A stretch of 64,000 nt of DNA, from positions 5,426,071 through 5,490,070 of the forward strand of contig MU053810.1 in NCBI GenBank assembly GCA_013239625.1, written 5' to 3'. The position numbers and the translations under genes were made by a program. The notes beneath the pieces were generated by a model. The model worked only from the letters and a program-made list of their open reading frames with translations, was not told where the DNA came from and searched no databases. Positions 48,002-48,390 of the stretch are shown here, one piece after another (positions within the stretch are counted from its first letter, which is position 1; every line of letters starts with the position of its first letter). The DNA is from Lama guanicoe. Taxonomy: Eukaryota.

Positions 48002-48390
48002 TTTTTTTTTCCCAGAAAAGGTTTTATTATGCACAGACGGGAGGGAGGGGCTCAGCCTTTCTTAGCGGCCGCTTTCCTCATGGCGGCCAGGACGTTGCGC
48101 AGCTCCTCTCTCTCCCTCTTGGCGCGGGCGTGTGTCCCCACCCGTTTCTTGATGAATCTGAGGGCCCGCTTGTCCTTGGAGACCTTGAGCAGCTCCATGG
48201 CCCGCCGCTCGTAAGGGGCGAAGCCACACACCTCCCGGATCACGTCCCGCACGAAGCCGGTGTGCTTGGTGAGGCGCCCGCGGCGGCGGCTGCGCCTCGG
48301 CTTTTGCTCACGTTCTTGGTCCCCTTGTGGCCTTTGTTGAGGCCCGTGGCCACGGGATACCGCAGGGCCATGGCTGCCGCAGCGGAAGGC
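48002..48390 (-). pseudogene. RPL36: Full-length processed pseudogene of 60S ribosomal protein L36 (eL36)
   Basis: ATG at 48371 gives [23 protein letters not shown]. Two extra A at ~48302-48305 cause a frameshift; the other frame continues [15 protein letters not shown]...[21 protein letters not shown]...[11 protein letters not shown] (stop 48052-48054). The copy is intronless, with AATAAA at 48023-48028 and poly(A) at ~48000-48010. 12-bp TSD: ttcatgagactt (47990-48001) / ttcgtgagactt (48391-48402). Confidence 0.97.

Follow-up and report, generated by a model that had tools for sequence, protein, structure and literature searches.

A processed RPL36 pseudogene of Lama guanicoe with a near-exclusive AT>GC replacement spectrum, probably shaped by GC-biased gene conversion

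The window analysed here, a stretch of 64,000 nucleotides of Lama guanicoe DNA, contains a full-length processed pseudogene of RPL36 on its minus strand, of the L1-mediated type (Table 1). Processed pseudogenes of ribosomal proteins made through L1 share four traits: no introns; a poly(A) tract; a target-site duplication; and a disablement. The RPL36 copy is like them in each of these. It differs from them in its substitution spectrum, which is reversed relative to that of 40 control RPL36-like proteins.

The reading frame runs from an ATG at 48371 to a TGA at 48052. Its 320 nt are the expected 318 plus a 2-nt insertion, which disables the frame; the original prediction does not mention this frameshift. 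In an intron-bearing RPL36 relative the match is split into two pieces about 580 bp apart, whereas the coding region of the retrocopy is continuous. At the single mismatch between the two copies of the duplication, either a CpG was gained in the 5′ copy or one was lost in the 3′ copy. As for a host gene, no Pfam match was found in 150 of the 276 stop-to-stop frames of at least 58 aa (about 27,300 to the end of the window, outside the insert, all but one); the remaining 126 frames were left out, and short exons would escape such a scan.

Table 1. Features of the RPL36 retrocopy and its insertion site (window coordinates)
Feature	Position	Strand	Remarks
RPL36 (eL36) coding region without introns	48052..48371	-	11 replacements; 13 of 15 implied base changes AT>GC
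A-run with 2-nt insertion (two extra A)	48302..48305	-	Frameshift after codon 22
5′ UTR-derived segment, between duplication and ATG	48372..48390	-	Putative UTR, judged by position
3′ UTR-derived segment	48011..48051	-	AATAAA at 48023-48028
Poly(A) tail	48000..48010	-	11 unbroken A, last two common to duplication
5′ copy of 12-bp target-site duplication	48391..48402	-	One-base mismatch to 3′ copy; CpG at that base here
3′ copy of 12-bp target-site duplication	47990..48001	-	
Perfect 14-bp palindrome from M7V and V9T together	48343..48356	.	V9T possibly one templated event
CpG-island-like patch from insert	48012..48391	.	380 bp; GC 0.65; 33 CpG; observed/expected 0.83

The copy carries 11 replacements: M7V, V9T, V17G, H26R, K38G, M43V, K71R, I81A, K86E, S91R, and D105G. 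Residues and codons alike, as listed in the original prediction, were borne out against solved eL36 chains and the consensus of 120 homologues. Minimal paths imply 15 base changes: 13 AT>GC, one GC>AT, and one ambiguous. The earlier tally of nine A>G, two T>C, one T>G, one A>C, and one G>A was correct for the changes it included; it had omitted a third-base change at K38G (G>C or A>C). Polarisation was possible at amino-acid-changing sites only, a caveat entered from the outset that still stands, and the spectrum discussed here accordingly consists of 15 changes in 11 codons.

Four kinds of change from A or T to G or C (W>S) occur: A>G, T>C, T>G, and A>C. These W>S changes are evenly spaced along the frame (KS p=0.95), and seven of the 13 create a CpG. 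The reported persistence of CGN arginine codons is real: all 16 conserved arginines are kept, 12 of them as CGN. The wider statement that CpGs are intact holds nearly, not wholly. The single G>A sits at a CpG, one hit in 36 non-synonymous opportunities for CpG transition, where the controls would lead one to expect about 14.6.

Within three codons the changes are adjacent (p=0.005 under independence), which points to fewer events than changed bases. The sole change in the opposite direction (S>W), the G>A, lies in V9T. Together with M7V, V9T creates a perfect palindrome (Table 1); the conserved-residue version of the same segment is a near-palindrome with one mismatch, which suggests correction by template switching. 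V9T, including the only S>W change, may therefore be a single event of this known kind (described in PMC5453318). For K38G and I81A, the closest candidate templates were repeats of 7 and 6 nt, no longer than background.

The changes are unlikely to be consensus errors. The words that cover changed codons make up 21% of those over the segment 47660-48900, so sequencing runs should hold at most 79% of all words if the changes were erroneous. Read support, a check proposed at the start, was assessed with 136 sampled words over this segment. In 14 of the 24 runs listed the share is 0.90-0.97; setting aside two possible source runs leaves 12 independent runs, from four studies and four organism labels, that hold 0.90-0.96. 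The best independent run for each organism label holds at least 0.93, so that at most about four of the 11 changed codons could be absent. With word shares this high, the greater part of the burst is likely older than the split of the four labelled organisms. In six runs, of RNA or guessed to be RNA, the share is 0.07-0.18, which gives no sign of expression.

Error during retroposition was considered and rejected as well. The error rate of L1 reverse transcriptase lies well under 15 changes per 315 bases.

How unusual is the spectrum? The controls were 40 mammalian RPL36-like or diverged proteins, picked by name from the best 120 of 327 hits; their first eight columns were masked, and 293 replacements were classified. 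At the DNA level the control replacements were mapped on the codons of the copy, which classified 220 and dropped 73 of the 293 (50 multi-step, 23 ties). These controls represent lineages other than that of the copy, their frames are open, they were ordered by similarity to the query, and they take their codons from the copy. Moreover, the RPL36 case was picked from a genome scan, and the p-values given here are uncorrected for that choice.

Scoring by amino acids only, blind to DNA, gives a W>S:S>W ratio of 6:0 for the copy versus 64:140 for the controls (p=0.001). The mapped controls comprise 66 W>S changes, 74 CpG transitions, 47 other S>W changes, and 33 neutral changes; the corresponding counts in the copy are 13, 1, 0, and 1. 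The W>S:S>W ratio is then 13:1 versus 66:121 (Fisher p=3e-5), or 10:0 for the copy when events are counted (p=5e-5). When CpG transitions are left out it is 13:0 versus 66:47 (p=0.002; by events, p=0.013), and CpG transitions alone number one versus 74 (p=0.001). Every one of the 23 control proteins with at least seven replacements has a change of R to H, Q, C, or W (0/23 without). The AT>GC excess of the copy thus exceeds chance, also outside CpG.

This near-exclusive AT>GC spectrum at amino-acid-changing sites is probably the work of GC-biased gene conversion in a meiotic recombination hotspot. The likely course is as follows. The L1 machinery would have copied a normal RPL36 mRNA into the locus (the anatomy is visible; the copying is read from it). 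The copy would then have been free of selection. The insert would sit in a meiotic hotspot, which either PRDM9 or the CpG-rich insert would have brought there. Finally, heteroduplex repair would fix new A/T>G/C mutations and hold back G/C>A/T mutations, CpG decay included.

Gene conversion was one of two mechanisms originally put forward, and Poisson fits on six change classes favour it in all three counting schemes. AIC per base is 19.7-22.8 for GC-biased gene conversion, 27.7-33.2 for RNA editing, and 33.1-42.6 for neutral decay; for the eight single-change codons only, the values are 12.5, 18.4-19.9, and 24.5-29.1, respectively. Conversion is ahead of editing by 6-12 AIC units and of neutral decay by 12-22. 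The fitted B is 2.8-3.6 per base, and on single-change codons it reaches the grid limit of 12. With B of about 3 the conversion fit predicts an equilibrium GC of about 0.9 at amino-acid-changing sites. A worst-case bound, in which all ten other A/T-ending codons are taken as S>W, is 0.69, versus 0.39 for the window.

Comparable tracts are described elsewhere. According to Capra et al. 2013 (phastBias; PMC3744432), GC-biased conversion tracts in apes span a few hundred bases at B of 3-10; the median length is 276-788 bp for B from 10 to 3, and such tracts are common, with 9,439 at B=3 that cover 0.33% of the human genome. Berglund et al. 2009 (PMC2631073) report clustered W>S changes in coding sequence, and biased flanking DNA as well. 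The RPL36 copy is like these tracts: a short W>S cluster, with B of about 3 and a length within the range. It differs from those described there in being a processed pseudogene in a camelid genome, polarised at amino-acid-changing sites only. Flanking DNA is a further difference. The bias reported there by Berglund et al. has no visible counterpart around the RPL36 copy in one scored SINE and in the 300-bp flanks, which are 37% and 30% GC. The SINE, about 400 bp away, shows two W>S and two S>W changes relative to a seven-copy consensus, as other copies do, and is uninformative on spill into the flanks.

The insert forms a CpG-island-like patch (Table 1) with the composition of a CpG island by the usual thresholds; CpG observed/expected is 0.23 in the window as a whole. 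One might suppose that the insert is simply unmethylated and has kept its CpGs, the rest being ordinary mutation and chance, amplified by amino-acid-site scoring and by the choice of this case from a scan. That account is unlikely, although several observations fit it. The controls without CpG transitions are already 58% W>S (66 of 113), the event-level p outside CpG is only 0.013, and three of the A>G changes fall in one context, CAT>CGT. This context is mutable. However, the fit is 12-14 AIC units behind that of gene conversion, and non-CpG S>W changes are missing too, with none seen versus about nine expected from the controls, so missing methylation alone fails as an explanation. Gene conversion alone would preserve the CpGs just as well: leaving methylation in or out of the conversion model shifts the AIC by two units at most.

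The second mechanism originally proposed was A-to-I hyper-editing: the template would have been an edited RPL36 mRNA, whose inosines reverse transcription fixed as G at insertion. Sense-strand A>G changes are 9 of the 15, and the Poisson fit is better than that of neutral decay. Nevertheless, editing is very unlikely. The sense-strand excess, first singled out as special, turns out to be ordinary. There are 72 opportunities for A>G versus 33 for T>C, and the ratio of the two changes in the copy, 9:2, is like the 44:6 of the controls (p=0.63); per opportunity, 9/72 versus 2/33 is no clear difference on such small numbers (p=0.50). Likewise, A>G accounts for 9 of 13 W>S changes in the copy and 44 of 66 in the controls (p=1.0). 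The changes are not almost exclusively A>G, and with all A>G removed the rest are still GC-ward, 4:1 versus 22:121 (p=0.003); stricter counts of non-A>G changes give 3:0 (p=0.005) and 2:0 (p=0.026). Moreover, editing of the template leaves the later retention of CpGs unexplained.

ADAR sites are depleted of a 5′ G and enriched for a 3′ G, as given in Porath et al. 2014 (PMC4365171). Sites with a 5′ G were changed in 2 of 22 cases in the copy versus 7 of 50 for other sites, and sites with a 3′ G in 1 of 24 versus 8 of 48 (p=0.26); with nine A>G sites and little power, no trend toward the motif appears. Folding of the insert alone reveals no long duplex: its folding is no stronger than that of shuffled versions (z +0.5), and the longest helix is 9 bp. 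The copy is like hyper-edited transcripts as characterised by Porath et al. in having several sense-strand A>G changes, and differs in their share, in the missing neighbour motif, and in the missing duplex within the insert. A literature search found no retroposed hyper-edited mRNA; subscription journals were mostly outside its scope, and it does not prove absence. As a practical caution, RPL36 retrocopies normally show an excess of sense-strand A>G at sites that change amino acids, and RNA editing should not be read from it.

It is also quite improbable that the changes arose elsewhere: in another, already diverged RPL36 copy that gave rise to this one or converted it, or in the species' own gene, which would then have these residues. 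In favour, the duplication, with its single mismatch, and the unbroken poly(A) tract do look younger than a divergence of about 6%, and no camelid RPL36 for a direct comparison was present among the 32 members listed for the clusters of four homologues, nor among the best 120 of 327 hits. On the other side, no homologue among 148 has more than one of the 11 residues, and four of these residues are absent from all; a diverged donor, moreover, would only shift the question to the donor. A metagenome scan for the parent gave 28 loci, the closest 79% identical in DNA and none usable as parent.

Selection for a new protein, now or in the past, is scarcely credible. The frameshift does join the last 83 RPL36 codons to a flank ATG at 48414 in an open frame of 120 aa (48052-48414, minus strand), but selection on protein would not choose a base class, none of the best 120 of 327 hits exceeds 91% identity, an open GC-rich frame is expected where stop-making S>W changes are lacking, and the frame shows no sign of function.

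GC-biased gene conversion leaves the source of the hotspot to be considered. One tentative and rather doubtful answer is that the CpG-rich retrocopy, set in AT-rich DNA, became its own germ-line-unmethylated island and so founded a new PRDM9-independent hotspot, which in turn would have brought more GC. PRDM9-independent hotspots at hypomethylated CpG islands are known: Joseph et al. 2024 (PMC11161765) give the pattern at conserved hypomethylated loci in 33 of 52 mammals, and dog CpG islands combine suppressed CpG loss with raised W>S in Berglund et al. 2014 (PMC4350167). The RPL36 patch is like these islands on both counts. It differs in origin: theirs are pre-existing and mostly promoter-like, whereas the RPL36 island came by retroposition. 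Camelids are absent from the main text and four text supplements of PMC11161765, and its species-tree figure may include one. The literature search, again mostly outside subscription journals and no proof of absence, found nothing on GC-biased gene conversion in camelids, on a retrocopy-borne island, or on a retrocopy-seeded hotspot.

As a product of GC-biased gene conversion, the RPL36 copy would be one more case of a known process, and a small, clean illustration of how substitution can be GC-biased in DNA free of selection. If it did seed its own hotspot, camelid retrocopies would become dated natural experiments, and sequence composition alone could found a hotspot. Should the bias prove much commoner in CpG-rich retrocopies of this lineage than in matched CpG-poor copies, the founding of PRDM9-independent hotspots would be testable through dated insertions.

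Elsewhere in the window, two patches (28000-29200 and 36500-37000) have raised CpG observed/expected (0.6-0.7), modest GC, and long frames with no Pfam match; they are possibly unmethylated regulatory DNA. An AT-rich tandem array at 5747-6442 comprises four copies of a 173-bp unit with 94% matches. A 76-bp inverted pair (14307-14381 and 14861-14936) is 95% identical, its arms about 480 bp apart. Two tRNA-type SINE copies lie head to tail at 12615-12805 on the minus strand, and their family has seven copies in the window.
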